Assembly: GCA_965217895.1 (NCBI GenBank)
Contig: CBDCJV010000002.1
Coordinates: forward strand, 1,792,001 to 1,856,000
Source of the DNA: Waterburya sp.
Lineage (GTDB): Bacteria; Cyanobacteriota; Cyanobacteriia; Cyanobacteriales; Xenococcaceae
Direction: 5' to 3'
DNA: 64,000 bases
Of the stretch, positions 46,614 through 64,000 are shown piece by piece (within the stretch, counting starts at the first letter, position 1; every line of letters starts with the position of its first letter). The notes under the pieces were generated by a model, which worked only from the letters and a program-made list of their open reading frames with translations, was not told where the DNA came from and searched no databases. The translations under genes and the position numbers were made by a program.

Positions 46614-46710
46614 GCGGTGAGACAGTTGCGTTGCGGTGAAGCAGTTGCGTTGGGCGGGTTTCCCGACTTGAGCAAACTGCTGAACCCGAAGGGGGTTTCC
46701 CCCGTTGAGG
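46614..46710. repeat. Small dispersed repeat nested within a copy of itself
   Basis: GCGGTGAGACAGTTGCGTTG followed immediately by GCGGTGAAGCAGTTGCGTTGG; two GGGTTTCCC hairpins. Confidence 0.65.
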
Positions 46711-46902
46711 AGGGCGTGTCGTCGTAGCTTTGCTGCGACGTTTATACCGCCCGTCAAACTGTTGAACCCTTTAGGGGGTCGCACCGCTAACCGATTGACG
46801 TACTGCGATAAATTGTTTCTCTTTGACATTGCGAATCAAAACTCGTTAGATGCTCACGCTCATCTGTCTGGTTATCGGCGAATAATTATGTTATGCTAAT
46901 TT

Positions 46903-47000
46903 GTGATTCGGACTCATGCAGTATTAACGCCCGAACCTTGTCAGAGCTTGACGGCAGCAGCAATAAGGGATGCTTAACACAGGCGTGATATCCGAATCAT
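46903..47000 (+). ncRNA. ffs: Signal recognition particle RNA (4.5S) with a UGAC tetraloop
   Basis: Long hairpin TGATTCGGA.../...TCCGAATCA; helix 8 CCCGAACC..GTCAGA-GCT-TGAC-GGC-AGCAGC-AATAAGGG; TGnTATGCT extended -10 at 46889-46897. Confidence 0.88.
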
Positions 47001-47006
47001 CATTAT

Positions 47007-47138
47007 TAAACCATGTCTATATTAAAAACAGTAGTTCTGATGAAGGCGAGATAGTATCAAATCAAAACTCGTTACTTGCTACTTGCTACTCAAAACAGTT
47101 AACTAAAAAATTACAGGTTTCAAACTAGATGCAGTTTA
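47007..47138. mobile_element. Degenerate MITE-like element with TAAACCGCATCTAG-type ends and internal ACTTGCT heptamers
   Basis: Right end TTTCAAACTAGATGCAGTTTA; degenerate left end TAAACCATGTCTATATTAAAA; related end at 50103-50123. Confidence 0.45.
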
Positions 47139-47207
47139 ATAGCTCTGTTTCAAGACTCAAATCACTATGGTTCTTGGGATTAAATCACTGCCACAGATGT
47201 TGACCTA

Positions 47208-48032
47208 ATGTTGACAAAAAGGATAAAAAACATACCTAAGAAATTTATCGTTTTTCAATTGTTGATTTTAAGTTTAGTCAGTAGCTGTACTCAAACCGTT
47301 AATCGCCAGACAGTAGATAAACAACAAACTCCCGCAACAACGGAATTAACTATCTCTGCTGCTGCTAGTATGCAGGATGTATTAACTGATATTGAAGATC
47401 TTTATACTCAACAACATCCTCAAGTAAAGATAGCTCTTAATTTTGGTTCTTCTGGTTCTTTGGAAAATCAAATAGAACAAGGCGCGCCGATTGATATTTT
47501 TATTTCTGCTGCACCAAAGCAAATAAATGATTTAGAGGCTAAAAAGCTGCTACTCGCCACAACTCGCCAAGATTTAGTAGCAAACCAAATGGTGTTAATA
47601 GTACGGCCAGACAATCAATCAATTGTTGATTTTGCCGATTTAGCCAAAGAATCAACTAAGCAAATCGCTTTAGGAGAACCGACTAGTGTTCCTGCGGGAC
47701 AATATGCTGAAGAAATATTAACCAACCTAAATATTATTGATGCTGTTAGACCTAAAAGTGTTTATGGCAAAGATGTACGCCAAGTTTTAAGTTATGTGGA
47801 GACGGGCAATGTAGATGCAGGGATAGTTTATCGTACCGATGCAGAGTCTTCTAAACAAGTCAAAATTGTTGCTACTGCACCCGAAAAAAGCCATAGCCCT
47901 ATAATATATCCTGTTGCCGTAATTAAAGATAGCAATCATCCCCAAGCTGCGGAACAGATGCTTCAGTTTCTCTTTTCACCTGAAGCTCAGGCTATTTTTA
48001 AACAGTATGGTTTTGTGTCAATTAACAATTAA
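47208..48032 (+). CDS. modA: Molybdate ABC transporter substrate-binding lipoprotein
   Basis: Lipobox-like VSSC, SAAASM, FGSSG, VPAGQYA, DAGIVYRTDA. Confidence 0.95.
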   Translation: MLTKRIKNIPKKFIVFQLLILSLVSSCTQTVNRQTVDKQQTPATTELTISAAASMQDVLTDIEDLYTQQHPQVKIALNFGSSGSLENQIEQGAPIDIFISAAPKQINDLEAKKLLLATTRQDLVANQMVLIVRPDNQSIVDFADLAKESTKQIALGEPTSVPAGQYAEEILTNLNIIDAVRPKSVYGKDVRQVLSYVETGNVDAGIVYRTDAESSKQVKIVATAPEKSHSPIIYPVAVIKDSNHPQAAEQMLQFLFSPEAQAIFKQYGFVSINN

Positions 48033-48055
48033 CAACTGAAGATACTTCATTGGCT

Positions 48056-48239
48056 GGCGTTGCTGAATCCAGGTATGATTCATAATTTTTACTCGTTGAG
48101 CAAATCAATTAAAAAGCTAAGAGCTGCAAGCTGGAGCTTGCCGACTCTCCTTCGGAGAGGCGAGGCTTTCCAAAGCCTCTAAGAGCTAATAGCTACGAAC
48201 AGATTACTTTTCGGTTTCATACTTCAAATCAGCAACGCC
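48056..48239. mobile_element. MITE-like element with 23-bp imperfect TIRs and nested hairpins and heptamers, located between modA and modBC
   Basis: GGCGTTGCTGAATCCAGGTATGA ... TCATACTTCAAATCAGCAACGCC. Confidence 0.7.
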
Positions 48240-48274
48240 CATTTGCTTTACCCAAATTTGTACGATTAAATCTT

Positions 48275-50098
48275 TTGTTAAATAGCAGTGTTTTAGCTTC
48301 CGTTTGGATATCTCTCAAAACAGCAGTAGTCGCCACGATAATTACCTTCTGCTTGGGAGTTTTGGCTGCGTGGTGGATGAGTCGATATCGAGGTAAAGCT
48401 AAAGGCTTAATTGATGGCATCTTTACTGCGCCGTTAGTATTACCACCGACAGTAGTAGGATTTTTATTACTTTTGGCTTTGGGTAAAAATGGATTTTTGG
48501 GACAACTATTAGATTTAGTAGGCATACGAGTAATTTTTACCTGGTATGCTACCGTCATTGCAGCCACAGTAGTAGCTTTTCCTTTAATGTATAAGACTGC
48601 TTTAGCAGCATTCCAGCAAAATAATACTAATAGTAATCTCGTTGCTTGTGCGAGAACTTTAGGAGCTTCAGAAACCACTATTTTCTGGCGAATCATTTTA
48701 CCGTTAGCTAAACCTGGGCTGATTGCAGGAACTTTATTAGCTTTTGCTCGCGCTTTAGGCGAATTTGGGGCAACCTTGATGTTAGCAGGCAGTATTCCTG
48801 GTAAAACTCAAACCATACCAATTGCCATCTTTTTTGTTGCCGAAAGTGGGGCGATGGATCAAGCCTTATGGTTAGTAATTATATTGTTATTTATTTCTTT
48901 AGCCGTCATTATGGGGGTTAATTATTGGGAAAACAGAGAAAGTAGGGGCAAATGGTTGTTAACCCACAAGAAAGCTAGAGGCTATTCGCAAACAGCCTTT
49001 AGAAAAAGTAAGCAAATAGAAGAGATAAAGTTAGAGGTAGATATTCAAAAACAACTACCAGATTTTTTATTGGACATTACCTTTAAAATTGATAGCCAGC
49101 AAAATACTTTAGGAATACTAGGAAGTTCTGGAGCAGGAAAAACCACTCTTTTACGCTGTATTGCAGGATTAGACACTCCAGACCGAGGCAGAATTATCCT
49201 CAACAATCGAGTTTTATTTGATTCAGCCAAGGAAATTAACTTACCACCTCAAGAACGTACTGTGGGTTTAGTATTTCAAGATTATGCTCTTTTCTCTCAT
49301 CTTACTGTAGCTGAAAATATTGCTTTTGGGATGTCTGCTACACACTCAGCTTTGGTAATTCAGGAAGAAATAAATAAGCAATTAGAACAAGTAAATTTGT
49401 TGTCAAAAAGCGATCGCTTTTCTGCCCAGCTATCAGGAGGAGAACAGCAAAGAATCGCCTTAGCAAGAGCTTTAGCTAGCAATCCTGCTGTAACCTTACT
49501 AGATGAGCCATTTTCTGCTTTAGACACTAACTTAAAAGCTAGATTAATTAAATTGCTCCACAAGCGTTTAACTAATTATCCAGGCTTAACTCTATACGTT
49601 ACTCACAATTTGGCAGAGGCATATTATCTTTGTCCGCAATTATTAATTATCGATCGCGGCACAGCGATCGCTTTTGATCAAAAACAAAATATAATTAATC
49701 ATCCTCCTAACCTCAAAACGGCTCAAATAACAGGATGCAATAATTTTTCTCGTGCCAAGAAAACTTCACCGCAAACTATTAAAGCAGTAGATTGGCAATG
49801 CGAGCTACAGGTTGAGCATCCCATACCTAAAAACTTAAGCCAAATTGGTATTCATGCTCATGCAATTACCTTTACCAAGAATGAGTCAGGGGTAAATATA
49901 TTTCCCGTTTGGCTGGCTAAATATAGTGAATTTCCTAACAAAGTTATTGCGTATTTAAAACTTCATTCCACAATTAATAATTCAGAAGACTATCATTTAG
50001 AAGTGGAAGTAACTTTTTCTCAATGGCAACAGTTACAACAGCTAGCTTTACCTTGGCAGATACAATTACCTGCTAATCAAATAATAATGTTTAGCTAA
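48275..50098 (+). CDS. modB: Fused molybdate permease and ATPase (ModBC)
   Basis: PLVLPPTVVGF, FARALGEFGAT, then GSSGAGKT, LSGGEQQR, LLDEP and a TOBE-like tail. Confidence 0.92.
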   Translation: MLNSSVLASVWISLKTAVVATIITFCLGVLAAWWMSRYRGKAKGLIDGIFTAPLVLPPTVVGFLLLLALGKNGFLGQLLDLVGIRVIFTWYATVIAATVVAFPLMYKTALAAFQQNNTNSNLVACARTLGASETTIFWRIILPLAKPGLIAGTLLAFARALGEFGATLMLAGSIPGKTQTIPIAIFFVAESGAMDQALWLVIILLFISLAVIMGVNYWENRESRGKWLLTHKKARGYSQTAFRKSKQIEEIKLEVDIQKQLPDFLLDITFKIDSQQNTLGILGSSGAGKTTLLRCIAGLDTPDRGRIILNNRVLFDSAKEINLPPQERTVGLVFQDYALFSHLTVAENIAFGMSATHSALVIQEEINKQLEQVNLLSKSDRFSAQLSGGEQQRIALARALASNPAVTLLDEPFSALDTNLKARLIKLLHKRLTNYPGLTLYVTHNLAEAYYLCPQLLIIDRGTAIAFDQKQNIINHPPNLKTAQITGCNNFSRAKKTSPQTIKAVDWQCELQVEHPIPKNLSQIGIHAHAITFTKNESGVNIFPVWLAKYSEFPNKVIAYLKLHSTINNSEDYHLEVEVTFSQWQQLQQLALPWQIQLPANQIIMFS

Positions 50099-50174
50099 GA
50101 ACTAAACCGCATCTAGTTTGAAATGCGCAAATGCCTGGGTTTCAAATATCTGTTTGAGAGAGTAGAGAGTTGTA

Positions 50175-50309
50175 TTATATTAGGTTCGGATGAAGAGTTA
50201 AATTTAGGTAGGTAGAGTAGCAAGTAGCAGATAGCAAGTTTTTTAGACCCAGTTTTAATTATTTCATGGATACATATTGTATTAAAGCAATTATCCGAAC
50301 TTGATATTA
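50175..50309. mobile_element. MITE-like element with ATATCAAGTTCGGAT-type TIRs
   Basis: TTATATTAGGTTCGGATGA ... TTATCCGAACTTGATATTA, with internal AGCAAGT heptamers. Confidence 0.55.
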
Positions 50310-50391
50310 GACCTTTTCTAAATACAAAATTACCATCTCTAAATTAATTAGAATGACTATAGCTTTCAATATTTTAAAAACTATCTATTTT

Positions 50392-50721
50392 TCAATTGTT
50401 TCTAGTTATGGGTCTTTCCCCATCAATATCTAAAGTATCGACAACTTCGTATTTATTAGCCATGATGGGGCGTTCTCCGTCGTCTTGAAAAGTATCAACA
50501 ACTTTTACACCATGATTATTCGCAGGACGCTTACTGTCTTTTTCTTCTGGCTGATTTTGAGGTTTATTTGATTCTGAAGAATTATTTACCAGAAAATCAA
50601 GACTTTTAGCAATTGGCCGTTCTCCATCTTCTTGAAAAGTATCTACTATATCGATTTCACCTTCATCAATCGGACGAATACCATCTTCTTGAAAAGTTTT
50701 GTTTTCTTGTTGTTCGCTCAT
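50392..50721 (-). CDS. Acidic protein with four DTFQ(E/D)DGERPI repeats
   Basis: TFQEDGIRPI, DTFQEDGERPI, DTFQDDGERPI, DTLDIDGERPI. Confidence 0.75.
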   Translation of the reverse strand: MSEQQENKTFQEDGIRPIDEGEIDIVDTFQEDGERPIAKSLDFLVNNSSESNKPQNQPEEKDSKRPANNHGVKVVDTFQDDGERPIMANKYEVVDTLDIDGERPITRNN

Positions 50722-50801
50722 GATCTTTGTATTTTTATTAAGGATATAGTTATTTAGCTTTTAGTAAGTAGTGAGTAGTAAGTAGTGAGTAGTTTTCTAT
50801 G

Positions 50802-50927
50802 CAATACCGTTCGTTTAAGCCCCCCAGCCCCCAACTTTGGGGGAGCTAGACTTGTGTAGCTGTCCCCCAGGATTGGGGGATTTAGGGGGCGGATGAAATA
50901 ACTTAAGAGACTAACCGAACAGTATTG
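50802..50927. mobile_element. MITE-like element (CAATAC(C/T)GTTCG TIRs) carrying a C/G-run palindromic repeat and sitting inside a heptamer palindrome
   Basis: CAATACCGTTCGTTTAAG ... CTAACCGAACAGTATTG; internal CCCCCAACTTTGGGGG and CCCCCAGGATTGGGGG. Confidence 0.7.
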
Positions 50928-51010
50928 GTTTTTTATGACTACTTACTACAAACCACGAACTACAAACTTCATTTCAATACCATTAAATAAATTGTTGTTC
51001 TCAAACTGTC

Positions 51011-51394
51011 TTAGTCGAAGAAATCTTTAACTGAATCTACGAAACTTTCCGACTTATCTCCTACAGTATCTTTAGCATCATCTAATTTGTTTTTAGCAGT
51101 GCCAATACCTTGCTTAGCTGAACCTTTTGCTTGGTTCAATGCACCTTCTGCCTTATTATCTATGTCGCTTGATGCTTTACGTTTGGCTGTACCCATGCCC
51201 TTTTGCATACCGCCTTCAACCTGATCGGAAATTCCCGATGCTGTTGCTGCTAGCAAAGGATTATTAAAAGTTTCTATATTTACTGAGGCATTAGCCGAAG
51301 CAGTAAAAGAATTAAAACCTATAAAGATAGTAAAGGCGATCGCGCTCAAGGCGATCGTTAATTTACCTGCATATATTTTGAATTTACTGATCAT
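51011..51394 (-). CDS. CsbD/LEA-like stress protein with an N-terminal signal or TM segment
   Basis: KAEGALNQAKGSAKQGIG...VDSVKDFFD. Confidence 0.7.
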   Translation of the reverse strand: MISKFKIYAGKLTIALSAIAFTIFIGFNSFTASANASVNIETFNNPLLAATASGISDQVEGGMQKGMGTAKRKASSDIDNKAEGALNQAKGSAKQGIGTAKNKLDDAKDTVGDKSESFVDSVKDFFD

Positions 51395-51539
51395 TTTTTG
51401 TCCTTTATCTAAAACGTAATGTTTATTGCTCTGTTCTTTAGCTTTAACAGTATATTTGGTATTTTATTTTATTTAATCATTCTAGAGTTAGAGATTAAGA
51501 AAAATTAAACTGCTCGCGTCTGTCTATCGCCCAACTTCA

Positions 51540-52376
51540 CTATCCTTTAACTCCACTGCTAACGTCCGTCGGAATTATATATCGCTGAATCAATAAAAAT
51601 AAAATTAAAATTGGGGCAATAGAAATAACTGAACCTGCTGCTACCAATCTCCAATCTAAAGAAAAAGAACCAGCTAAATTTTCTACCGCTAGGGGTAAAG
51701 TGTAATAATCTGGATCGTCTAAGACAATTAAAGGCCAGATAAAATCACTCCAGGAGCCGATGAATACAAAAATAGCTAGAGTAAATAAGGCAGGACGAAT
51801 TGCGGGTATCATTATATTCCACCAAATACCAAGTTCAGAACAGCCATCGATACGTGCAGCTTCTTCCAACTCCAAAGGAACAGCTTTTAGTGCTTGTCTG
51901 AGCAGAAATATTCCAAATGCTGAGGCAAGATTAGGCAAAATAATTCCCATATAGGTATTTCTCAAACCTAAATTTACCGCCAAGATATATAGAGGAATCA
52001 TGATGATCTGAAAGGGAATCATAATGGTTGCCAAAATAAGAGTAAAAAGCAACTCCCGTCCGCGAAAAGACAAACGAGCTAAGGGATAGGCTGCTAATGA
52101 GCAGAAGATTAGATTTGAACCTACGGTGCAAACAGCAACAACTGTACTATTAATTAGATATTGTCCAAAAGGATAACTTTGCCAAACCGTGACAAAATTT
52201 TCCCAGGTAGGTTGAGTTGGCAATATTTGCGGGGGAAAAGCAAAAACATCTTCGGTGGGAGATTTAAAAGACGTGCCAATTAACCACATGAGAGGGAACA
52301 ACATCAAAAAAGCGATCGCGCTAAGAACTAGATACGTGACTATGGTTTTGGTTATTGATCGCTGATTTATTGTCAT
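51540..52376 (-). CDS. Carbohydrate ABC transporter permease (MalG/LacG-like)
   Basis: LAAYPLAR, ELEEAARIDG, WSDFIWPL. Confidence 0.92.
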   Translation of the reverse strand: MTINQRSITKTIVTYLVLSAIAFLMLFPLMWLIGTSFKSPTEDVFAFPPQILPTQPTWENFVTVWQSYPFGQYLINSTVVAVCTVGSNLIFCSLAAYPLARLSFRGRELLFTLILATIMIPFQIIMIPLYILAVNLGLRNTYMGIILPNLASAFGIFLLRQALKAVPLELEEAARIDGCSELGIWWNIMIPAIRPALFTLAIFVFIGSWSDFIWPLIVLDDPDYYTLPLAVENLAGSFSLDWRLVAAGSVISIAPILILFLLIQRYIIPTDVSSGVKG

Positions 52377-52457
52377 TTTTGTAGCAATTCAGTTTTCAGT
52401 AATTAATTATCAATAAACAATGAACAATTATCAATAAAAGTTTGTCTTGCTTAGTGA

Positions 52458-52709
52458 TTATTTCTGTTCTTTACAGCGGAATCTTCCCTCAATAAAACCC
52501 CTTTGGGCTAAATGTTTCGTTTTTCTACCTGTGACTCGCTTGCGCCACATTTTAAAGCTTGAATGTTTCATTTCTTTTCTCATCAAGGCTATGACTTCTT
52601 TTTCTTGTAAGCCAAACTGAGTTTCAATTGCGCTAAAAGGGGTACGATCTTCCCAAGCCATTTCCACAATGCGATCAATACTTTTTACGTCTAGATCGGG
52701 TAGTTTCAT
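52458..52709 (-). CDS. TIGR03643/DUF2805-family protein
   Basis: DRIVEMAWEDRTPF, SFKMWRKRVTGRKTKH. Confidence 0.85.
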   Translation of the reverse strand: MKLPDLDVKSIDRIVEMAWEDRTPFSAIETQFGLQEKEVIALMRKEMKHSSFKMWRKRVTGRKTKHLAQRGFIEGRFRCKEQK

Positions 52710-52852
52710 AATGTTTAAATCAATTTAATTTATATATACTTTGATTTAACAACTTATTATATTTCAGCAATTATCGCTTCTGTAGCAAGATAGAACAATC
52801 AAAATTTTAGCTATAATGCCCACCAGAATGAGCTATTACCTCTTACCGAGTT

Positions 52853-53716
52853 ATGACATCCACAATTAGACAACCTCGTCGATTTCATCTGACTCTTTCC
52901 CAAAGTTTAACTATTATCGGCTTAATTATTACTCTTGGCTGTATTGCGATCGCAATATTTGCTCCCGCATTACAAGACATTGGCTGGTTACAAGATCCCT
53001 TAGAAGGTTTGGCTAATCCAGTTGACGAACCTCCAGGGGCAGATTATTGGTTTGGGACGACTCGTCAGGGATATGATGTGTTTTCCCGCACTCTTTTTGG
53101 TACTCAAGCTGCTTTAAAAGTGGTGGTGTTGGCGACAACCATTAGTTTAGTATTAGGCGTTCCTTTGGGCTTGGTAAGTGGCTACCTCGGTGGCAAAATT
53201 GATAAGGTTCTGATTTTCTTTATGGATACAATTTATACTTTACCTGGATTATTGTTGTCTGTAACTCTGGCTTTTGTGGTCGGACAGGGAGTGTTAAACG
53301 CAGCTTTAGCTCTGAGCATTGCTTATATTCCTCAATATTATCGAATCGTTCGCAACCATACTACTAGTGTCAAAACCGAGTTATTTATTGAAGCTGCCCA
53401 GGCGATGGGCGCACCTACCAGCAGGATTTTATCTCGCTATTTGTTTTTTAATGTGATTCAAAGCGTTCCTGTTTTGTTTACCTTAAATGCTGCCGATGCA
53501 ATTTTAATTCTTGGTGGTCTGGGTTTTTTGGGCTTAGGTCTACCTCCTGAAGTTCCAGAATGGGGTCACGATCTTCGTTTGGCTTTAGATGCTTTGCCCA
53601 CGGGTGTCTGGTGGTCTGCTACTTTTCCTGGTTTGGCAATGACAACTATGGTAACGGGTTTGTCTTTAGTTGGGGAAGGACTGGGAGATATGCTGAATTC
53701 AGGAATACGTAAGTAG
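52853..53716 (+). CDS. Peptide ABC permease (DppC-like)
   Basis: WFGTTRQGYDVFSR, FIEAAQAMGA, GFLGLG, PEWG. Confidence 0.92.
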   Translation: MTSTIRQPRRFHLTLSQSLTIIGLIITLGCIAIAIFAPALQDIGWLQDPLEGLANPVDEPPGADYWFGTTRQGYDVFSRTLFGTQAALKVVVLATTISLVLGVPLGLVSGYLGGKIDKVLIFFMDTIYTLPGLLLSVTLAFVVGQGVLNAALALSIAYIPQYYRIVRNHTTSVKTELFIEAAQAMGAPTSRILSRYLFFNVIQSVPVLFTLNAADAILILGGLGFLGLGLPPEVPEWGHDLRLALDALPTGVWWSATFPGLAMTTMVTGLSLVGEGLGDMLNSGIRK

Positions 53717-53739
53717 GGGCGATTCGCGAATCGCTTGAC
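53713..53739 (+). repeat. GTAG-type REP-like palindrome overlapping the stop codon
   Basis: GTAGGGGCGATTCGCGAATCGCTTGAC. Confidence 0.6.
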
Positions 53740-53801
53740 AAACAAAAACGATTTTGCAATATTTATAGTAATAATTACCAAAATTATATCAGATTTCCAG
53801 A

Positions 53802-55169
53802 ATGAAAACAATCCTAGCAAAAGATGCCCTAAATATAAACCCTCAAGATTACTCTTTATTAACAGATTTATATCAGTTAACCATGATTGCCTGCTATGGG
53901 GGAGAAGGAATTGCCACTAAAAGAGCAAGTTTTGAGTTATTTACACGGCATTTACCTCAAGACTTTGGCTATCTAATTGCCATGGGATTGACTCAGGTAC
54001 TGGAGTATCTAGAAGCACTGAGCTTTAGTTCTGAGCAAATTCAAGCATTAAAAGATACAGGAATATTCACTCATGCACCTAAAGCATTTTGGCAGTTATT
54101 GGACTCTGGGGGTTTTACGGGAGATGTTTGGGCAGTACCAGAAGGCACGGCAATATTTGCTAATGAACCGATATTAAGAATCGAAGCTCAACTGTGGCAG
54201 GCACAGCTAGTAGAGACTTATCTGCTAAATACAATTAATTATCAAACTATAGTTGCTACCAAAGCAGCAAGAATCAGAGATGTTGCGGGAAAACAGGCGA
54301 CTATTCTCGAATTTGGCACGAGAAGGGCATTTAGTCCCCAAGGGGCAGTTTGGGCAGCTAGAGCAGCCTTATCAGCAGGATTTGACGGCACGTCGAATGT
54401 ATTGGCAGCATTAAGGCTAGGAGAAAAACCGCGAGGCACAATGGCTCATGCTTTAGTTATGGCAATAAAGGCGATCGCAGGCAGCGAAGACGAGGCTTTT
54501 AAGGCTTTTCAGAATTACTTTCCTGATGCAACTTTACTTATCGATACCTATGACACTGTAGCAGCAGCACAACGTCTACAAGTCCAAAGGGATGCAGGAG
54601 AAATTAGCGTCAAGGGAGTACGAATTGATTCAGGAGATTTGGCAGAATTATCACAAAAAGTACGCCACTATTTACCAGAGACTAAAATTTTTGCCAGCGG
54701 TGATTTAGATGAATGGGAAATCAGCAAACTACAGCAACAGGGTGCATCTTTAGACGGCTATGGCATTGGTACTAAATTAGTCACAGGTGTAACAGTCAAC
54801 GGGGTATATAAGCTAGTAGAAATAGATTCTATTGCGACTATGAAACAATCTAGCCACAAGCTCACATATCCAGGTTGCAAACAAATATTCCGTAAAGTAA
54901 TTGATGGTCACATAAGTTCAGACAGACTGGGTTTGAAAGATGAAATGCCTGATGATGATGAACAAGGTTTATTAGAAATAGTTATGCAGTCTGGGAAAAG
55001 ACTACAATCATCTGAAGGCTTGGATACAATTCGTCAGCGCGCTGCCAGTTCTGTAGCAAGTCTTCCTACTAAGGTTCGTCAAATTAGCCAGCCTTTTGCT
55101 TTTGAAGTTGATATTTCTGATGCTTTAGAGTCTTTGCGGGATGAAGTAGCTAGACGAAATAATAAGTAA
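53802..55169 (+). CDS. pncB: Nicotinate phosphoribosyltransferase
   Basis: LLTDLYQLTM, EFGTRRA, GTMAH, LIDTYD, VRIDSGDL, GVYKLVE. Confidence 0.95.
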   Translation: MKTILAKDALNINPQDYSLLTDLYQLTMIACYGGEGIATKRASFELFTRHLPQDFGYLIAMGLTQVLEYLEALSFSSEQIQALKDTGIFTHAPKAFWQLLDSGGFTGDVWAVPEGTAIFANEPILRIEAQLWQAQLVETYLLNTINYQTIVATKAARIRDVAGKQATILEFGTRRAFSPQGAVWAARAALSAGFDGTSNVLAALRLGEKPRGTMAHALVMAIKAIAGSEDEAFKAFQNYFPDATLLIDTYDTVAAAQRLQVQRDAGEISVKGVRIDSGDLAELSQKVRHYLPETKIFASGDLDEWEISKLQQQGASLDGYGIGTKLVTGVTVNGVYKLVEIDSIATMKQSSHKLTYPGCKQIFRKVIDGHISSDRLGLKDEMPDDDEQGLLEIVMQSGKRLQSSEGLDTIRQRAASSVASLPTKVRQISQPFAFEVDISDALESLRDEVARRNNK

Positions 55170-55212
55170 TAAGTCAGGATAATCAATACAGCCAATTTGA
55201 TCTAGAAAAAAT

Positions 55213-55452
55213 CTACCAAGTCGGATCATCGTATATATTTACCGTTAATTCTGATCTGTCTCCAGGAACAGAACTAATGCAGGCACAAATAGCTTCCCCA
55301 TCCCCTAGTTCCACTTCACAAGCATGACAAGAACCCATTAAACATCCCGTGGCAATAAACACCCCTGCTCGTTCTGCCACCTGTAACATTGGTTCTCCTG
55401 GTTCTGCTTCAACTGTAATATTGTCTGGCAGAAAACAAACCTTAATACTCAT
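55213..55452 (-). CDS. Small 2Fe-2S ferredoxin-like protein
   Basis: GCLMGSCHAC...ICAC. Confidence 0.88.
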   Translation of the reverse strand: MSIKVCFLPDNITVEAEPGEPMLQVAERAGVFIATGCLMGSCHACEVELGDGEAICACISSVPGDRSELTVNIYDDPTW

Positions 55453-55714
55453 TTACTTTTATACGCCTGATGTGAATTACTTCGTTTAGATTTATTGGTT
55501 TTCAGCTATTAGCCCTTAGCTCTTAGCTCTTAGCTACTACGATCTTCGTGTAAGGTTCGGCAAACCCTAGCTACGTAAATTAATTACAAAATTTTACTTT
55601 TGTAAAATGATTAATCGATGCATTTTGAATATGGGGGATGCTGAAATTATTTCAGCATATCCAACCACGTTGTTAAAGTTTTTTAATTTACATTAGACGT
55701 TTTATAGATAACCT

Positions 55715-57208
55715 TCAATAATAATTAGACAAAATTTTCTTTAAATCTAAATGTTTTTCTACAATGTCTGCCAAGGTATTCAAAGTAGTCTCTCTTTGAT
55801 CTCGGTAATTAGAAATCCCTGTAGCTAAAGACGACATTCCCCTTTGCTTACGTAAGTGATTAATCCAAGAGCGTCGCCAAGCACCATTATCAAATAGCCC
55901 ATGAATATAGCAACCCCAAACAGACTGATTTTTGTCTACCAATCCTAAGCCAGCATCATCAAAAATTGGTCGATAATCTTCTTCTCCTCCTTCTTTAAGA
56001 CGACGACTAAGACGAGTGCGCCCTTGGTGAATTTCATAGCCGTCTACGGGTAATCCAGGTTGGGGAAAGTGGGAAATTACCTGTCTTTGACGAGCGATTT
56101 TGTTAGGGGAAAGCATAGTTGTAATTGGCAATAGATCGAGAGCATTGTATTCTCCTGCTTCTCCTTCAAAGCCTTCGGGGTCAATTATACGCTGTCCTAA
56201 GATTTGATAACCGCCACAGATACCTAATACTGTACCTCCCGCAGCAGCATAACTTTTAATTTGTTCTGCCATACCGCTTCTTTCCATTGCTAACAAATCG
56301 GCAATAGTGGTTTTAGTGCCAGGAATAATTACTGCATCAGGATGTCCTAGAGAATCTTGAATATCTATATAGTTAACGGCTACAGAAGATTCTGCCTCTA
56401 AGGGGTCAAAATCAGTAAAGTTGGCAATTCTTGGTAGCCTAATAACGTGAATATTAATATCTTGACTACTGCGACGACGATTTCTTTCTAACAAATCGAG
56501 GGAATCCTCGGAGGGAAACCGCTCATTACTCCAGGGAATTACACCTAAAACAGGTATTTTGGTCTTTTCTTCTAACCACTCGATTCCTGAGTCGAGAAGT
56601 TCTTTCTGTCCGCGAAATTTATTAATTACCACTCCTTTGACAAGCGATCGCTCTGTCGGGTCTAATAGTTCTAACGTGCCTACTACGTGAGCAAACGCGC
56701 CACCACGCTCAATATCTACCACCAAAATAGTTGGCGCATTAAGATGTTTGGCAACTCTCATGTTAGTCAGATCTCGGTGTTTGAGATTAATTTCTGCGGG
56801 GCTTCCTGCCCCCTCACAGACAACTAAATCAAATTCTAAAGATAGACGATATAAAGACTCTTGAATTACTTCCCAGCCCAAATCAAAATATTTCTCATAA
56901 TATTCGCTGGCTTTAACCGTACCTACAGCCTTGCCCTTAATAATTATCTGAGAAGTCATATCCCCTTGAGGCTTTAAGAGAATGGGGTTCATTTCTACTC
57001 TGGGGGCAACTCCTGCTGCCCAAGCCTGAACTGCCTGAGCGTGTCCTATTTCTCCTCCAGTCGATGTTACATAAGCATTTAGTGCCATGTTTTGCCCTTT
57101 AAAGGGGGCAACTCGCCAACCTTTTCTTGCCAAAATACGGCATAGTGCAGCAGTCAGGAAGGATTTTCCTGCATGAGATGTTGTCCCGACCACCATAATC
57201 GCTTTCAT
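55715..57208 (-). CDS. cobQ: Cobyric acid synthase
   Basis: GTTSHAGKS, PFKGQNMALN, EGAGSPAEINL, GICGGYQ, GYEIH. Confidence 0.97.
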   Translation of the reverse strand: MKAIMVVGTTSHAGKSFLTAALCRILARKGWRVAPFKGQNMALNAYVTSTGGEIGHAQAVQAWAAGVAPRVEMNPILLKPQGDMTSQIIIKGKAVGTVKASEYYEKYFDLGWEVIQESLYRLSLEFDLVVCEGAGSPAEINLKHRDLTNMRVAKHLNAPTILVVDIERGGAFAHVVGTLELLDPTERSLVKGVVINKFRGQKELLDSGIEWLEEKTKIPVLGVIPWSNERFPSEDSLDLLERNRRRSSQDINIHVIRLPRIANFTDFDPLEAESSVAVNYIDIQDSLGHPDAVIIPGTKTTIADLLAMERSGMAEQIKSYAAAGGTVLGICGGYQILGQRIIDPEGFEGEAGEYNALDLLPITTMLSPNKIARQRQVISHFPQPGLPVDGYEIHQGRTRLSRRLKEGGEEDYRPIFDDAGLGLVDKNQSVWGCYIHGLFDNGAWRRSWINHLRKQRGMSSLATGISNYRDQRETTLNTLADIVEKHLDLKKILSNYY

Positions 57209-57278
57209 CGATCGCTCCTGTGCTGGAATATATACACTGTTATAACAGCTAGATCGGCAGTTAATATTAGTGAAGCGT

Positions 57279-57674
57279 TTATTTTAACCAACGATTGAGC
57301 CAATTGAAAACTAAATCTAACAAAGAGGCAGGAGGAATCTGATTTTGTGACTGTTCCCATTGGGCTACAATCTTTCTACCCAAAGGAGTTAAACGAAAAC
57401 TATCGGTTAATCCCTGACCGTCTACTTCCCGTCTTAACAAGCCTACACTAATTAGCCAAACTAATTTGGCTTCAGTTTTTGGTTCACTAAAAGCTTGGGT
57501 GGCATAACCCAATTTAATTCCTGTTTCACCAGCAATTTGCTGAATTGGTACGCTTTGATTACGCATATCTTGGAATAGCTTAAGGCAAAAAGGAGAACAG
57601 GATAATGCTCTTTTGGCTCTATTAATTATTCTGGGAGCATAATCGACAGTGGTGCTGTCTATATTTGAAGTCAT
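57279..57674 (-). CDS. Npun_F0494-family conserved cyanobacterial protein
   Basis: WLISVGLLRREVDGQGLTDSFRLTPLG. Confidence 0.85.
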   Translation of the reverse strand: MTSNIDSTTVDYAPRIINRAKRALSCSPFCLKLFQDMRNQSVPIQQIAGETGIKLGYATQAFSEPKTEAKLVWLISVGLLRREVDGQGLTDSFRLTPLGRKIVAQWEQSQNQIPPASLLDLVFNWLNRWLK

Positions 57675-57738
57675 TATTATTAAATATGTTTTAACTCGTC
57701 CAATTGCCGATTCAATAGTTAAATTTATGATTTAAACA

Positions 57739-59088
57739 TTATATTAAAGGTAACTCAATTGTAAATGTGCTTCCTCTATCTAATTGGCTACTAACCCTAA
57801 TTGAGCCATGATGCGATCGCACTATCGCCTGAGCAATAGCTAAACCCAATCCTGAACCTCCACTATTACGAGAGCGATCGCTATTGACGCGATAGAACCG
57901 CTCAAAAATACGGGATTGTTCTGCTTCTCGAATCCCAATTCCCGTATCTCGAATTTGAATTATGGCGTAGCGGTTATCTCGATCTAAGATCGCGGTAACT
58001 TTACCTTTTTGTGGAGTGTATTGAATCGCATTAATCACTAAATTGGCAACTAGGCGATACAGTTCGGGTTCATTTCCTGCTATTTGTAAAGCATGACAGA
58101 CACGAATATCAGTTGCTAATTTAATCTTAGAAGCTAAAGCCAAAGCAGTGAATTCTTCGGCAATATCGTTAACTAGATCGTTGAGTATAATGCGATCGCC
58201 TTGATAGTGAGTGGATAAGTTGCGATCGCTTTCTCGCTCCATTCGAGATAAAGTTAATAAATCAGCAACCAAGCCTGACATACGATTATTTTGTCGCTCA
58301 ATTGCTGCTAGAGATTCTTTTACTTCATTTTCTTGCCAGACTGGCAACAATGATACTGATTCTATTGTGGCTCTAATTGTTGCCAAAGGTGTTCTTAATT
58401 CGTGTGCCGCATCTGCTGTAAACTGCTGAATTTGGAGATAAGAACTGTATATTGGTTGCATTGCTAACCCAGCTAAATACCAAGCTGAAATAACTACCAA
58501 TATTAAAGCCAGGGGAAATCCTAATAATAAGATCCAGGCAACGTTGGCTACATAACGATTGAAATCTTGTAAACTTCTGCCAACTAATAAATATCCCCAT
58601 GGCCGATTGTCAACTGTTTCTAGGGTTAGTACAATCTGATGATAGCGATTACCCTGGTTATCTCGAAGATGAATCCAGGATTGCTGCTGAAACTTTATCG
58701 GCAAACCTCCAGGCTGGATTCCCACCACAGCCACCAAACGCCCAGAAGTATCTAATAAACGTAGATAGTAATCCCCTCGATCGACAGCGTTTATTTGATG
58801 GCGATCGCGATTATTTACCTGAGAACAATTGGTTGCCACCAGACATAAACTAGGGAATAGGTTGTTAACGGCTGGCTCTAATTTTCCTGGCTCTTGGAGA
58901 TATAGTTCCAGGCTATCGTGAAATGCACCTGCTACCGATTCAATTTCGCGATCAACTGTCACTTTATGGGCATGGGCGATCGCCTGATAAGCTCCCAAAC
59001 CACATCCGCCAAGAATGATACTCATTACTCCTGCATACCAACAGGCTAAACGCCAGCGAGTTGTTTTAAAGAGTCGATCTTGATTCAC
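57739..59088 (-). CDS. Metal-responsive sensor histidine kinase (RppB/NrsS/CopS-like)
   Basis: TRWRLACWY, two TMs, FTADAAHELRTPL, NAIQYT, DTGIG, GGSGLGLAI. Confidence 0.9.
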   Translation of the reverse strand: MNQDRLFKTTRWRLACWYAGVMSIILGGCGLGAYQAIAHAHKVTVDREIESVAGAFHDSLELYLQEPGKLEPAVNNLFPSLCLVATNCSQVNNRDRHQINAVDRGDYYLRLLDTSGRLVAVVGIQPGGLPIKFQQQSWIHLRDNQGNRYHQIVLTLETVDNRPWGYLLVGRSLQDFNRYVANVAWILLLGFPLALILVVISAWYLAGLAMQPIYSSYLQIQQFTADAAHELRTPLATIRATIESVSLLPVWQENEVKESLAAIERQNNRMSGLVADLLTLSRMERESDRNLSTHYQGDRIILNDLVNDIAEEFTALALASKIKLATDIRVCHALQIAGNEPELYRLVANLVINAIQYTPQKGKVTAILDRDNRYAIIQIRDTGIGIREAEQSRIFERFYRVNSDRSRNSGGSGLGLAIAQAIVRSHHGSIRVSSQLDRGSTFTIELPLI

Positions 59089-59783
59089 AATTTGTCAGGA
59101 GAAAAACGATAACCCAAACCATAAACTGTCTCTATTACATCTTCAAATCCTTGTTGAGCTAGTTTACGTCGTAACAGTCGCATTTGCGCTGCGACTACGT
59201 TACTTATAGGCTCTGTACCCCATTCCCATAGTTGAGATAAAAGTTGTTCACGGGTCAAGATTTGCTGAGGATGGCGCATAAAATACTCTAATAGCTTAAA
59301 TTCTTTTAAAGTTAAGTTGATTTTTCGTCTTATCGCTGTTTTATCTTCGATCCATACTTGATTTGTACCATAGTTTAAAATTAACCTACCTACCTGCAAC
59401 TGTTGCGGTGCTAGATTTGGCGATCGCCTTTGTAAAGCCCTCAATCTCGCTAGTAATTCTCTCATCCCAAAGGGTTTAACGAGATAATCATCTGCACCAG
59501 CATCTAAACCCGTAACGCGATCATTCATGCTGTCTTTTGCTGTCAGCATTAATATTGGTAAATTATCTTGCTTGCGCCTCAACCGCCTCAGTAACTCGAC
59601 ACCAGATAAACCAGGTAACAACCAGTCAAATATCCCTAAATTATATTCGGTTTGCTTGTCTTCTAAATAACACCAGGCTTCTGTGCCATCTTGTACCCAG
59701 TCAACCACATAGGCTTGTTGATGGAGAGTGCGCTTAATGGCAGTGCCTAAATCAGGCTCGTCTTCTACTAATAAGATACGCAT
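59085..59783 (-). CDS. OmpR-family response regulator (RppA/NrsR/CopR-like)
   Basis: VEDE, DWLLPG, GADDYLVKPF, SNVVAAQMRLLRRKL, ETVYGLGYR. Confidence 0.92.
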   Translation of the reverse strand: MRILLVEDEPDLGTAIKRTLHQQAYVVDWVQDGTEAWCYLEDKQTEYNLGIFDWLLPGLSGVELLRRLRRKQDNLPILMLTAKDSMNDRVTGLDAGADDYLVKPFGMRELLARLRALQRRSPNLAPQQLQVGRLILNYGTNQVWIEDKTAIRRKINLTLKEFKLLEYFMRHPQQILTREQLLSQLWEWGTEPISNVVAAQMRLLRRKLAQQGFEDVIETVYGLGYRFSPDKL

Positions 59784-59857
59784 AGATACTAGCCAAAATT
59801 AACTTAACTCTGACATATTTTCGATTCTTTGACTTAAGACTAAAAACATTAACAAAC

Positions 59858-59879
59858 AAAAATGAAATCAGGATGAAAT
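59858..59879. promoter_or_regulatory. TTTCAT direct-repeat box between the divergent regulator and copper-storage genes
   Basis: AAAAATGAAATCAGGATGAAAT; on the minus strand a TAGTCT -10-like hexamer lies 19 nt downstream, towards the regulator. Confidence 0.7.
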
Positions 59880-60004
59880 CAGTTTCTTTCTTTAGCCATA
59901 AATTACTATTCACTCATTGGAAAGATGTGAAGATTATGCAAGCCTTATAGCTTAGATATTGTAGGCAACTACATCACGTTAAATAAATCAATTGGAATTA
60001 AATT

Positions 60005-60349
60005 ATGACAGCTACACAAACTCAATCATCTAATCTAGAATCTTGTATTCAGGCTTGCTTGGATTGCCTTAAAGACTGTGAAAACTGCGCTACTGCCTGT
60101 TTAAAAAGCGATATGGTGCAAATGATGTCCAAATGTATTGAATTATGCCGTGACTGTTCTGATACTTGCGACCTTTGCGCTCGTTTGATGATGCGTAACT
60201 CAGGTATTCATGCTCAAATGTGCGGTGTTTGCGCGCAAGCGTGCGATCGCTGTGCCGAAGAATGCGGTAGTCATGATAGCGACCACTGTAAACGTTGTGC
60301 GGAATCCTGTCGCCGTTGTGCAGAGTCTTGCCGTCAACACCGCGATTAG
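60005..60349 (+). CDS. Four-helix-bundle copper-binding/storage protein (DUF326/Csp3-like); C-terminus altered by an insertion
   Basis: Repeated CXXXC/CXXC motifs (CIQACLDCLKDCENCATAC...CKRCAESCRRCAESC). Confidence 0.9.
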   Translation: MTATQTQSSNLESCIQACLDCLKDCENCATACLKSDMVQMMSKCIELCRDCSDTCDLCARLMMRNSGIHAQMCGVCAQACDRCAEECGSHDSDHCKRCAESCRRCAESCRQHRD

Positions 60350-60385
60350 AGATGCTCTCTGAGCGAGAGCCTCTCTCGCGGTCAA
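60338..60385. mobile_element. 48-bp palindromic insertion with a GTCAA duplication
   Basis: GTCAA at 60333-60337 and 60381-60385; ACCGCGA/TCGCGGT and GCTCTC/GAGAGC stems. Confidence 0.8.
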
Positions 60386-60638
60386 ATGGCAGCAGCATAA
60401 ATTTTAAGGTATTGCCATCGGTTTATATAAAAGTAGTCTGGGAGACTAGAGGACTGGGGGACTGGGAGATCGTTTGTTACTTGTTAACTCTTCCCTACTT
60501 GCTACTCTCCGCTCGTTTTTTAAATCGTTTTGCACTAAAGAGATCGCTTTCAACTAGAATCTACAACCCTTTCAGAATATTTATCTGTTTGTGACAACAA
60601 AATTAGCTGCATTGATAATTACTTCTCGTGCGATCGCT

Positions 60639-60935
60639 TTAAACTGAAAATATTTCTACTAAAATATCAGCCATTAATTGACATTCTTCTGTATTAATCA
60701 TCCATAATTTCTTTATATCTACACCAATTACTAAACCTTGCTCTCCTACGATTCTTGCCAAGGGAATGGCTACTAAACCAGTTCCCGTACATACATCAAG
60801 AATTGTTTGACTTGATCGCAAAGTTACAAAATCTAATAGTCTTTGAGCGTTTTCAGGATGTCCCCTATCTTCAGAATCATAAGCAGTTCTATTGTTAAAA
60901 AAATCAACTATTCTTTGCTGATAGTTTTTCTGCAT
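60639..60935 (-). pseudogene. Truncated class I SAM-dependent methyltransferase (UbiE-like N-terminus)
   Basis: ILDVCTGTG...VIGVDI, then similarity is lost; ends next to HIP1 at 60630-60637. Confidence 0.7.
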
Positions 60936-60979
60936 TTCTAATCAGTAATTGAGTTTAGTAATCAATAAATAGTAATCAA

Positions 60980-61019
60980 TCACTGTCTTTGGCGAAACAC
61001 CTCATAAAGTGCGATCGCT
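60980..61019 (-). pseudogene. rlmB 3'-end relic, distal copy ([12 protein letters not shown])
   Basis: Same peptide as the rlmB end with 6 nt differences, all synonymous; starts at HIP1 61011-61018. Confidence 0.9.
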
Positions 61020-61270
61020 TTTTTTCTTGGCTGTTTTCAATTTGCATAACGAAGTTAAGCTGTTAGGCTTATCGCCTTCTGTCTCAATATCAGCACACTA
61101 TTAAAAATTTAAATTTTTATTTAAATTTAGAATTGCCCGTGGGTGTTGCAGTTTTCCCAGAAAAAAGTGTGTCTGGTTTGGCTTTGGATATATTAGTGCA
61201 AATTATACAAAGCAGTATGAGTTGAAGATAGTTGCTATCCAGAGGTCTAGTAATTGGTAACCAGCAATGA

Positions 61271-61345
61271 TTATTGTCTCTGACGAAACACTTCATAAAG
61301 TGCGATCGCTGCTGCCACAGAAGCATTAAGACTAGGTGTTTTACC
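61271..61345 (-). pseudogene. rlmB 3'-end relic, proximal copy ([24 protein letters not shown])
   Basis: 67/75 identical to 62196-62270; all 8 differences synonymous. Confidence 0.92.
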
Positions 61346-61429
61346 TACTAGAAAATAGAGAACACAGAGTTGTTTATCAGGTTACAGATTGGATTCTTAG
61401 CTTTTCAAATTTGATGAGATCTAACGTAA

Positions 61430-62170
61430 TTACTTTACAGCCATAAGAGTAACCAAGCCATTATTGGTGTTAGAAACAATTTTATTAAAACCTACATCAC
61501 TAAGCTGTTTATCTACCCACTGCTTAGATAAGCGTAACTTTCTATAAAAACTTTTATTTAACTTCCAACTATCATGATTTTTTTGATAGATAAGATCGTG
61601 AACTTTAACTGTATCTGGTTCATATTCTAAAAAGCAGGTAAATATTGTTTGCTCATCACTCTTAATGGTTATAAAGCGATCAAGTTCAGATAACTCAACA
61701 GAAAGATCCCTGAAGGTAATAATAAACTTACCGTTGTCTTCTAATGCTGAAAACACTTTTCTAAGCAGAGAAATCACTTTATCTGGCGACTCTAAATGAA
61801 GCAGAGTATCAGTCATGCAGGTGATTAACTCTACTTGAGTATTAATATATTGCTCAAAATTGATGAGATCGTCTTGAATTGTAGAGATAGCCAAGTTAGT
61901 GGTACAATTTGCTTCTAATTCATCAAGCAACTGCCGATCTAAATCAATAGCTGTAACGGTAAAACCTAGTTTAGCCAGAGGAATTGATTGAAATCCGCAT
62001 CCTGCACCAAGATCGATTGCTTTAGCCGAGCTTGTTGGACTAACATGGTGTTCGTTCAAAAACTTAATATTTTTGCTGATACCTTGTTCAAACCCATTAA
62101 ATATCCAAGAGTAAACATCTGCAAGAACTTGATTATAATGCTCCTGAACTGTTGTCATAATCACCCTCAA
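61430..62170 (-). CDS. Class I SAM-dependent methyltransferase
   Basis: AIDLGAGCG, TAIDLD, CMTDTLLHL, KLRL. Confidence 0.88.
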   Translation of the reverse strand: MRVIMTTVQEHYNQVLADVYSWIFNGFEQGISKNIKFLNEHHVSPTSSAKAIDLGAGCGFQSIPLAKLGFTVTAIDLDRQLLDELEANCTTNLAISTIQDDLINFEQYINTQVELITCMTDTLLHLESPDKVISLLRKVFSALEDNGKFIITFRDLSVELSELDRFITIKSDEQTIFTCFLEYEPDTVKVHDLIYQKNHDSWKLNKSFYRKLRLSKQWVDKQLSDVGFNKIVSNTNNGLVTLMAVK

Positions 62171-62195
62171 TATTTATTGTTGTCTTGATTATTAG

Positions 62196-63023
62196 TTACT
62201 GTCTTTGTCTAAATACTTCATAAAGGGCGATCGCTGCTGCCACAGAAGCATTAAGACTGGGAGTTTTACCACTTAGAGGAATTGCCACTAGCTGATCGCA
62301 GTTTTTCTCTGTTGATTGACTCAAGCCTTGACCTTCTGAGCCGATAACTAAACCCACAGAGCCACTAAAGTTAGTCTGGTGCAGCATATTATCTGTATCG
62401 GCTGTTGTGCCATAGATCCAAAAGCCAGCATCTTTAAGCTTGATAATTGCTTGGTTCAAGTTTACGACTCTGGCGATCGCCATATTTTCTAATGCCCCTG
62501 CTGCCACCTTCATTACCGTTGAAGTAATACCTGCTGCGCGCCGTTGAGGAATAACTATTCCTTGGACACCTAATGCTTCGGCAGTACGGATAATTGCACC
62601 CAGATTATGAGGATCTTCGATCCCATCGGCAATGACAATTACAGGATCGGGTGTTTTTTTAGCATGGTCAATTAAAGCGGGCAAATCCCAGTAAGAGTAA
62701 GGAGCAACCTGGGCTGCAATGCCCTGATGATTGCCTCCTTGGGTTAACTGAGCTAAACGACGGGAATCTACCTCATCAATAATTGTACCGTTGGCTTTAG
62801 CCTCTTTAACTAAGGGATAAAACTGTCCGTGAGCGAGGAGTTTATCCGTAAGCCAAATTCGATTAATCTGGCGATCGCTTTTTAAGGCAGCCAAAACCGC
62901 ATGACGACCATAAGTTAAATCTATTTCTTCTGCTGGTTGAGTAAAAATCTCAGGAGTATTCTTACTATTAGAGTTAATTTTTGATTGAATTTTTTTCTTT
63001 GGTGGAGACGATTTGGGTTTCAT
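62196..63023 (-). CDS. rlmB: 23S rRNA (G2251) 2'-O-methyltransferase, TrmH/SpoU family
   Basis: [37 protein letters not shown]. Confidence 0.95.
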
Positions 63024-63057
63024 TATTTAATGCCTGTTACAAAAAAAAGCTGAATAT

Positions 63058-63474
63058 CTATTCTCCACTGTCAACGAAAGCAAAATCCAATTTGGCAAAC
63101 AATTCTTGTAAACGCTGAGGATTAGTTAAATGAAGATAGCCGACTAATGCTTCTAAGCCAGTTGCTTGCTGGTAAACGTGGCGAGATAAACGGCGAGGCT
63201 TGGTTGCACAAGCGTTGCGTCCTCGGCGTAAAATTTCCTTTTCCCCATCAGTTAAATATGGGAGTAAGGAGGATAAATGTATCGCCTGACTTTCGGCTCT
63301 TACTTGGGTGACGACTCGATCATGATAATCAGCCATACGTTTCGGGGGCATTAAGAATCTGGTGCGAACATATAGTTCAAATACAGCATCTCCTACATAC
63401 GCTAGAGCGATCGGCGACAACCGTTCAATTTCCGTCAATTGAATTGTTGTAGTCGAATCTGCCATAACTCCCAA
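63058..63474 (-). CDS. mrnC: Mini-ribonuclease III
   Basis: LAYVGDAVFEL, RRGRNA, YQQATGLEALVGYL; adjacent to rlmB. Confidence 0.92.
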   Translation of the reverse strand: MGVMADSTTTIQLTEIERLSPIALAYVGDAVFELYVRTRFLMPPKRMADYHDRVVTQVRAESQAIHLSSLLPYLTDGEKEILRRGRNACATKPRRLSRHVYQQATGLEALVGYLHLTNPQRLQELFAKLDFAFVDSGE

Positions 63475-63554
63475 TTTTACCTAAGCATGAGCCGTGTCTA
63501 TTGGCGTATTATCGAGTAGTTTATCTTCTGGTAAAAAAGCATCCATCAAGGACG

Positions 63555-63920
63555 TTATTTTTTTAGGCTTTCTAGTGCCTCTTCTACAGAAGGCTGGAGA
63601 GAAAGAAATTTCTCTAAACGAACTAGCTTAACAGTTTGTGTCACCCTAGGGTTAGTAACAACCTGTAAACTACCTCCTATTGTCTGCGCCTTCTTCACGA
63701 GCTGCACCAAAGCTCCCAGCCCAGAACTGTCGATAAAATCAATTTGTGCAAGAACCAAAATTAGGTTTTTTGGCCCCTCGTCTATACAGTTACCAATAAC
63801 CTTACGGAATGCTGGTTCTGAAAAGGCATCGAGTAACCCAGTTAGACGAAATATTTGATAGTTTTCCCTGACTTCGCGGGTGCCTCTTAAGCTTACAGTC
63901 AGGTTTAGCTGCTCAGGAAT
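63555..63920 (-). CDS. STAS-domain anti-sigma factor antagonist, 121 aa, probable ATT start
   Basis: The frame is open from ATT at 63918-63920 (IPEQLNLTVSLRGTREVRENYQIFRLTGLLDAFSEP...FIDSSGLGALV); GAGGAGGAGG SD just upstream; in-frame TAA at 63942-63944. Confidence 0.85.
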   Translation of the reverse strand: MPEQLNLTVSLRGTREVRENYQIFRLTGLLDAFSEPAFRKVIGNCIDEGPKNLILVLAQIDFIDSSGLGALVQLVKKAQTIGGSLQVVTNPRVTQTVKLVRLEKFLSLQPSVEEALESLKK

Positions 63921-64000
63921 AGCCTCCTCCTCAACTTTACCTTATGATTGCTAGCAGTAAGTGCTGTGCCGAATACCGACTTGTAACATTACTTTTAGCT

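Follow-up and report, generated by a model that had tools for sequence, protein, structure and literature searches.

Layout of the rlmB locus

The window (the whole stretch of 64,000 nucleotides of Waterburya DNA that was analysed) is part of contig C2; the genome has two contigs, 5.29 Mb in total, and the octamer HIP1 occurs in it at a density of 1.1 per kb. Towards its right end, the rlmB gene is followed on the minus strand by a stack of gene parts in which the end of rlmB recurs twice. The features of this locus are:

62196..63023, minus strand: rlmB, encoding the 23S rRNA G2251 2'-O-methyltransferase, with its current 3' end; working gene of 275 aa
62227..62234, no strand: HIP1 within the rlmB end (Ala-Ile-Ala), at the same position in all 22 genus sequences compared
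61430..62170, minus strand: intact class I SAM methyltransferase, in the cassette 61346-62195
61271..61345, minus strand: relic 1, the last 25 codons of an rlmB allele, with 8 synonymous differences and an internal HIP1 (61302-61309)
61119..61270, plus strand: 3' end (about 150 nt) of a convergent LysR regulator, the native neighbour of rlmB in the related genome G019
61019..61118, no strand: about 100 nt upstream of the HIP1 joint of relic 2, source not found in the genus
60980..61018, minus strand: relic 2, the last 13 codons, including the stop, of a third rlmB allele, with 6 synonymous differences; starts exactly at HIP1 61011-61018
60715..60935, minus strand: 5' fragment of a UbiE-type methyltransferase, homology breaking at 60715
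60630..60715, minus strand: 3' end of a MazF/PemK gene and HIP1 60630-60637, both native to a block elsewhere in the related genome G020

The rlmB product scores 262 bits with TIGR00186 (cut-off 160), and its top matches are named cyanobacterial relatives. The cassette with the intact methyltransferase has a GC content of 0.335 versus 0.43 for rlmB. Relatives hold homologues of this methyltransferase with 67–83% identity at other loci, and in none of 38 other genus genomes was it found adjoining rlmB.

An earlier note on this DNA had described two copies of the rlmB end, of 75 and 39–40 nt. We confirmed both, with 8 and 6 differences from the gene and no change of a residue; the length of relic 2 is 40 nt when one further matching base, at 61019, is counted. 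If the relic alone had decayed, the chance that all differences are synonymous would be 1e-5 to 4e-5 for relic 1 and 1e-4 to 4e-4 for relic 2. If the gene had been drifting too, it would be 6e-4 to 1.5e-3 and 2e-3 to 6e-3, respectively. Relic 1 probably extends two codons further, where it would read Leu-Val versus Leu-Ser in the gene; the Leu-Val form is present at those two codons in 16 of 22 genus relatives. The first 36 nt of this relic are identical to the alleles of G023 and G017. Its 5' joint lies away from HIP1, and the idea of a HIP1 at this edge had to be dropped.

The DNA between the relics had been taken for 250 bp of unrelated sequence. Its first 150 nt or so are the end of the convergent LysR gene and show 90.6% identity to the G019 LysR versus about 73–75% to the LysR paralogue of the same genome. 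For the remaining 100 nt or so ahead of relic 2, the 38 other genus genomes gave no convincing homologue (best E value 5e-6 over 33 nt). Beyond relic 2, the UbiE-type fragment has a full homologue of 267 aa (77%) in G010, located 865 nt downstream of rlmB. The note had this truncated methyltransferase ending at another HIP1. Its ORF does end beside HIP1 60630, but the homology already stops at 60715. This HIP1 was rejected as a joint because it is native to the neighbouring block in G020, and the breakpoint is 60715.

The DNA on the far side of that breakpoint shows some features of its own. A repeat of about 55 nt that recurs at least 11 times elsewhere in the genome lies at 60331-60385, at the end of a DUF326 gene; this gene also has 48 extra nt compared with G020. 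The stretch 52037-60715 is collinear with a part of G020 that is 1.4 Mb away from rlmB. In G019, G020 and G023, rlmB is followed by a urease region, which sits elsewhere in the genome of the window. Together these two observations indicate that 60715 is also the breakpoint of a large rearrangement.

The rlmB end in related genomes

According to the earlier note, each relic was once the working end of an rlmB allele from another lineage, and its junction with the adjoining DNA should be native in some other strain. The first statement is supported: all 14 differences in the two relics are synonymous and the flanks are native to other strains. The second is supported for relic 1 and for a relic in G019. 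Relic 1 together with 160 nt of its flank aligns at 87% to the native rlmB-LysR junction of G019, where the LysR gene lies directly after rlmB. G019 in turn carries a relic of its own 1657 nt downstream of rlmB. This relic begins with the HIP1 itself, departs from the G017 end at a single nucleotide and leads on into the flank that is native in G017 and G020; these two genomes represent the empty single-copy state of the locus relative to G019. The DNA preceding the HIP1 of the G019 relic is an 87% copy of the DNA preceding another HIP1 further downstream, which indicates that two HIP1 sites already in place were fused at this joint. No relative was found to hold an exact empty allele of the stack in the window. 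The rlmB alleles of the group are mosaic, which obscures the homologous crossover, and donor sequence upstream of HIP1 is only weakly visible in rlmB. As the allele comparison was inconsistent on which copy was resident, the strict time order that had been read from the stack is mostly unproven.

Extra local copies of the rlmB end are present in two of the 36 genus genomes with the motif; a second motif match in G050 is on another contig, has 2 mismatches and involves no local repeat. Relics of the rlmB end were absent from 16 metagenome loci, 8 of them with at least 3 kb of downstream sequence, and 14 loci of other families gave no convincing copy. On the basis of the genus genomes and metagenome loci, rlmB was rejected as a special hotspot. 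Upstream of rlmB, G019 contains about 2.2 kb and about 1.2 kb of extra DNA (L102, G019:C2 1670000-1678800) that are absent from the genome of the window.

Gene-end relics and HIP1 at other loci

Copies of gene ends were sought without any use of HIP1. This gave 34 rows, 21 of them with the geometry of an additive insertion, and 20 after one duplicate was dropped. An intact gene with HIP1 at the joint was found for 9 of these 20 relics, versus a background of 1.5%. The other 11, including rlmB relic 1, have no HIP1 at the joint, which means that HIP1 is preferred rather than required. The genes concerned encode a PutP-like symporter, MobA, UppP, a YifB-family ATPase, a DHA2 efflux protein and FumC, among others. 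Copies of 3' ends lie downstream of the gene and copies of 5' ends upstream, with inserts of 250–850 nt at rlmB and 0.4–6.3 kb elsewhere. The pooled pN/pS of relic versus gene is 0.43–0.44. Most relics are thus not purely synonymous, and rlmB is an unusually clean case.

Nine other loci were compared with five relatives. An empty allele was found at five of them, in one to four relatives, and in these five the duplication begins at HIP1 or at most 3 nt from it; at the other four, a clean empty allele was absent from the relatives compared. At the DHA2 efflux gene, G019 has a separate relic that ends at the same HIP1. The donor-side HIP1 pre-existed natively in two cases, namely the G019 insert at rlmB and the putP-like insert, whose far end has a homologue in G017 (G017:C24) that ends in HIP1 and then diverges. 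Which copy is nearer to the relatives varies, being the relic at uppP and the in-gene copy at the YifB gene. The assignment of resident and donor by allele identity was abandoned in view of this mixed outcome across loci.

Several of these loci deserve a description. The inserts L087-L100 frequently carry toxin-antitoxin pairs (HicAB, MazF, PIN, HigB), small methyltransferases and regulators. A mirror-image stack is located at the 5' end of fumC (L093, G000 C2 4100649-4105251), with two upstream copies of the fumC start, the far one ending at HIP1 and fused in frame to an AraC gene to give an ORF of 311 aa. Two 3'-end relics each are present at G000 C2 4172957-4176693 and 2159251-2161801, and one joint per stack is at the HIP1 of the gene. 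Copies of the putP-like end that start at HIP1 also occur far from the gene, at L134 (G019:C2 2797440-2798395), where two of them are in tandem, and at L135 (G020:C1 3471273-3471448).

Self-comparison of the genome in 24-kb windows yielded 1270 non-tandem direct repeats, of which 235 (at most three copies and above a score threshold) were kept. The repeat score ignores HIP1 bases, and controls with any octamer and with GC-rich octamers were run; on these grounds, a detection bias from HIP1 itself was rejected. Of the HIP1 sites common to both repeat copies, 25 of 48 lie at most 3 nt from an edge, whereas 3.9 were expected from other shared octamers (p = 3e-15). A genome-wide enrichment at relic joints, on which the earlier note had staked the role of HIP1, was thus observed. 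When two HIP1-rich clusters were excluded in a stricter test, 20 of 36 sites were at edges (2.9 expected), a result that was stable over four score thresholds, and GC-rich control octamers were at repeat edges in 10 of 193 cases. The two excluded clusters (G000 C2 2376-2384 kb and 3523-3526 kb) are made up of short non-coding repeats with HIP1 at one or, frequently, both of their borders. For pairs of HIP1 within 15 kb of each other, the ratio of one-sided to two-sided likeness was 41:18 versus 114:519 for control octamers, the 41 including dependent pairs and some intragenic repeats; distant pairs gave 0–1.

The number of HIP1 bases found in the second copy at the joint shows two peaks. All 8 bases are shared at 15 joints and exactly 5 at 7 joints, versus 1.1 expected in each case. 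Among the seven 5-base joints, two share one relic and one is possibly a mutated HIP1, leaving five clean ones (p = 0.006, post hoc). Three of these five have the expected polarity. A cut staggered about the central AT of HIP1 would leave five shared bases, which is suggestive only.

The same signal was sought beyond this genome. Four 400-kb samples had 5 of 16 shared HIP1 sites at edges versus 0.88 expected, corresponding to 4 independent repeats (p = 0.012), and G020 had no shared HIP1 site at all. Two of the sampled edge repeats, from other families, are relics of gene ends; the first shows 3 synonymous changes and 1 other, the second 0 synonymous changes and 2 others. None of 42 repeats from 33 other cyanobacterial loci had a shared HIP1 site. 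With such a thin signal outside the genus, it is suggested, not shown, that HIP1-edged gene-end relics are general in cyanobacteria.

Possible origin of the stack and related systems

We consider it probable that DNA from relatives was integrated additively, by means of one homologous joint and one short joint that is preferably at HIP1. A donor from a related strain would bring the same gene end (B') with a different neighbour (X), and would be added without loss of resident DNA. One joint would be homologous and located inside or just ahead of the shared gene end. The other would be short and non-homologous; it would re-enter the resident chromosome ahead of the gene end already there, with a preference for the HIP1 within the gene. 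The product, A-HIP1-B'-X-HIP1-B, would have an intact gene with a new tail, the old tail being shifted downstream. The rlmB stack could have arisen by repeated rounds of such events, relic 2 via HIP1 and relic 1 via another joint, and later breaks would have truncated the LysR gene and the second methyltransferase gene. In the two cases of a native donor-side HIP1, this 8-bp microhomology is present on both parents. Homology-facilitated illegitimate recombination involves a linear donor and depends on RecA. Here too, a linear donor may have been joined by host recombination enzymes, in the order of events given above. Natural transformation would be the route, as suggested by the intact comEC frame in the genome and by reports that HIP1 raises transformation (excerpts of bioRxiv 2024.09.10.611283).

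Other explanations were weighed against additive integration. That strains living side by side were assembled into a chimeric array is most improbable. The reads were checked through contigs of two runs from one sample, possibly the source of the window, 16 of 169 pieces being listed. These runs hold several strains, including one with a joint of the G019 type, and 61202-61304 is covered, but bridged by no piece among the 16 of 169 listed. However, single exact pieces with zero differences span both sides of relic 2 (60674-61202) and the 5' joint of relic 1 with the methyltransferase and rlmB (61304-62256), at similar depth (147.5 and 164), and relics of the same kind exist in G019 and at many loci. 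A dedicated integrase, for which the rlmB end would be the attB and which would bring a substitute end along in the manner of prophage e14 at icd, appears very improbable, although the geometry is as in icd/icdC (PMC13626634, in part). The earlier note had no integrase in view, which was borne out for tyrosine recombinases and for the ORFs scanned: none of the 10 tyrosine-recombinase matches in the genome is near rlmB, and no integrase or transposase family was detected in 45 insert ORFs or in the neighbouring ORFs scanned at rlmB. The 45 insert ORFs also lack a restriction-modification pair and include one Uma2 putative endonuclease. A viral attP for the rlmB end was rejected, the exact pattern of this end having 0 matches in viral contigs. 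There is no tRNA or tmRNA target within 44000-64000 of the window, nor a long close-spaced inverted repeat at the cassette ends at rlmB. An integron has a tyrosine integrase beside the array and an attC site at the end of each cassette, and an element of the e14/icd type has an integrase in the insert and one fixed target; no such integrase was found here, and the same structure occurs at many unrelated host genes. The rlmB array is neither an integron nor an att-site element, and "integron-like" was an overstatement, considering that there is no fixed site, that rlmB relics are limited to two of the 36 genus genomes with the motif and that two cargo genes of the stack are broken.

Two further alternatives were considered. 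An insertion may have duplicated sequence of the resident itself, after which the relic decayed or the allele in the working gene was replaced. Such a structure has been described in naturally competent bacteria (excerpts of PMC2853133), the pooled pN/pS of 0.43 leaves room for decay, and the mosaic rlmB alleles are in line with it. Nevertheless, this is distinctly unlikely given that 14 of 14 differences are synonymous, up to the stop codon, that the relic flanks are native to other strains and that the LysR piece resembles the G019 gene more than the paralogue of its own genome. A module running from HIP1 to HIP1, that is, a donor circle closed between two HIP1 sites and entering by a single crossover at HIP1 or at the shared gene end, would give the same product as a linear anchored donor. 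In accordance with such a circle, the G019 insert spans HIP1 to HIP1 with both ends copying resident sequence, HIP1 is present at either end of some repeats (C2 3516952-3517033; L275 of G028), and the putP-like end copies of G019 and G020 that lie at distant loci start at HIP1. Site-specific HIP1 recombination has moreover been reported in PCC 7002 (cited in PMC4390886, of which a part was available). Relic 1, the joints that lack HIP1 (11 of 20) and those with partial HIP1, however, cannot be products of a circle. There is also a weak indication that, immediately ahead of HIP1, the rlmB of G019 departs from the G017-type lineage of its relic. We regard the circle as unlikely.

Within the preferred reading, additive integration by one homologous and one short joint, the latter may be initiated by cleavage in the middle of the resident HIP1, an idea that is suggestive only. 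A broader proposal, which we advance tentatively and with some doubt, is that HIP1 is a general joining site for cyanobacterial gene acquisition. The resident chromosome would receive a cut or nick in the middle of HIP1; one of the ends would be repaired on a relative's DNA, and the other rejoined at the donor's next HIP1. The proposal draws on the two peaks of 8 and 5 shared bases, the latter at the position reported for the SDR5 insertion. If this is true, any gene end bearing HIP1 would be an integrase-free entry point. If general, the process would explain how small accessory genes are gained beside core genes without mobile elements, and one-arm integration suggests itself as an engineering route. 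As a natural record of past gene gains, the relics locate HIP1 precisely at the joints. They offer a simple genomic assay, i.e. the presence of HIP1 at the edges of local allele-level repeats, as well as a direct transformation test.

HIP1 is an 8-letter palindrome whose function is still unresolved after some thirty years, the favoured roles being DNA uptake, a Chi-like activity and chromosome structure, according to the portions of the literature consulted. Its recombination is known from the laboratory, with smtB excision between HIP1 sites and site-specific plasmid recombination in PCC 7002 (parts of PMC13756078 and PMC4390886), and the SDR5 insertion has been reported between HIP1 bases 3 and 4 (PMC4390886, same part). 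HIP1 is the recombination point in those cases and here, and the partial joints fall at the reported SDR5 position. However, as far as these excerpts go, the earlier cases are laboratory deletions, plasmids or one repeat family, whereas we describe natural gene gains with a gene end displaced at HIP1, and count them over the whole genome. Our literature search, with most subscription papers outside its reach, found no report of HIP1 at natural gene-gain joints. While the insertion structure is already known, this link of HIP1 to such joints is a new element within the literature searched.

The closest structure is the insertion with long target duplication described by Furuta, Abe and Kobayashi (2010, PMC2853133, in part), in which an insert of less than 20 kb is flanked by direct copies of more than 30 bp, mostly in naturally competent species. 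The rlmB copies of 39–75 nt and the insert sizes here fall within these limits, there is likewise no mobility gene, and an empty single-copy site exists in relatives, at five of nine other loci and in G017 and G020 versus G019 at rlmB. The cargo in that system consists of restriction-modification genes, which were not found here, where small methyltransferases, regulators and toxin-antitoxin pairs are carried instead. Moreover, the two copies here represent distinct alleles, and HIP1 is associated with one of the edges, unlike what the excerpt describes. In prophage e14 at icd, with its icdC tail (excerpts of PMC13626634), the gene likewise functions with a substituted 3' end, a fragment of the former end being left downstream, but this involves a prophage and an integrase at one fixed site, none of which was found here. 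In transformation merodiploids of S. pneumoniae (PMC3784515, in part), incoming DNA triggers an unequal crossover and both versions are kept, as here. Those events rely on long IS repeats and duplicate 100–900 kb, in contrast to an 8-bp word and inserts of 0.4–6 kb. Finally, in the T6SS immunity arrays of V. cholerae and in Rhs orphan tails (excerpts of PMC5361080), a homologous anchor and a non-homologous joint displace the old DNA, as here, resulting in an integron-like order without integrase that was ascribed to homology-facilitated illegitimate recombination. The displaced modules in these arrays are selected and belong to polymorphic toxin loci, whereas the relics described here look inert, adjoin housekeeping genes genome-wide and have a joint that is marked by a genome-wide motif.
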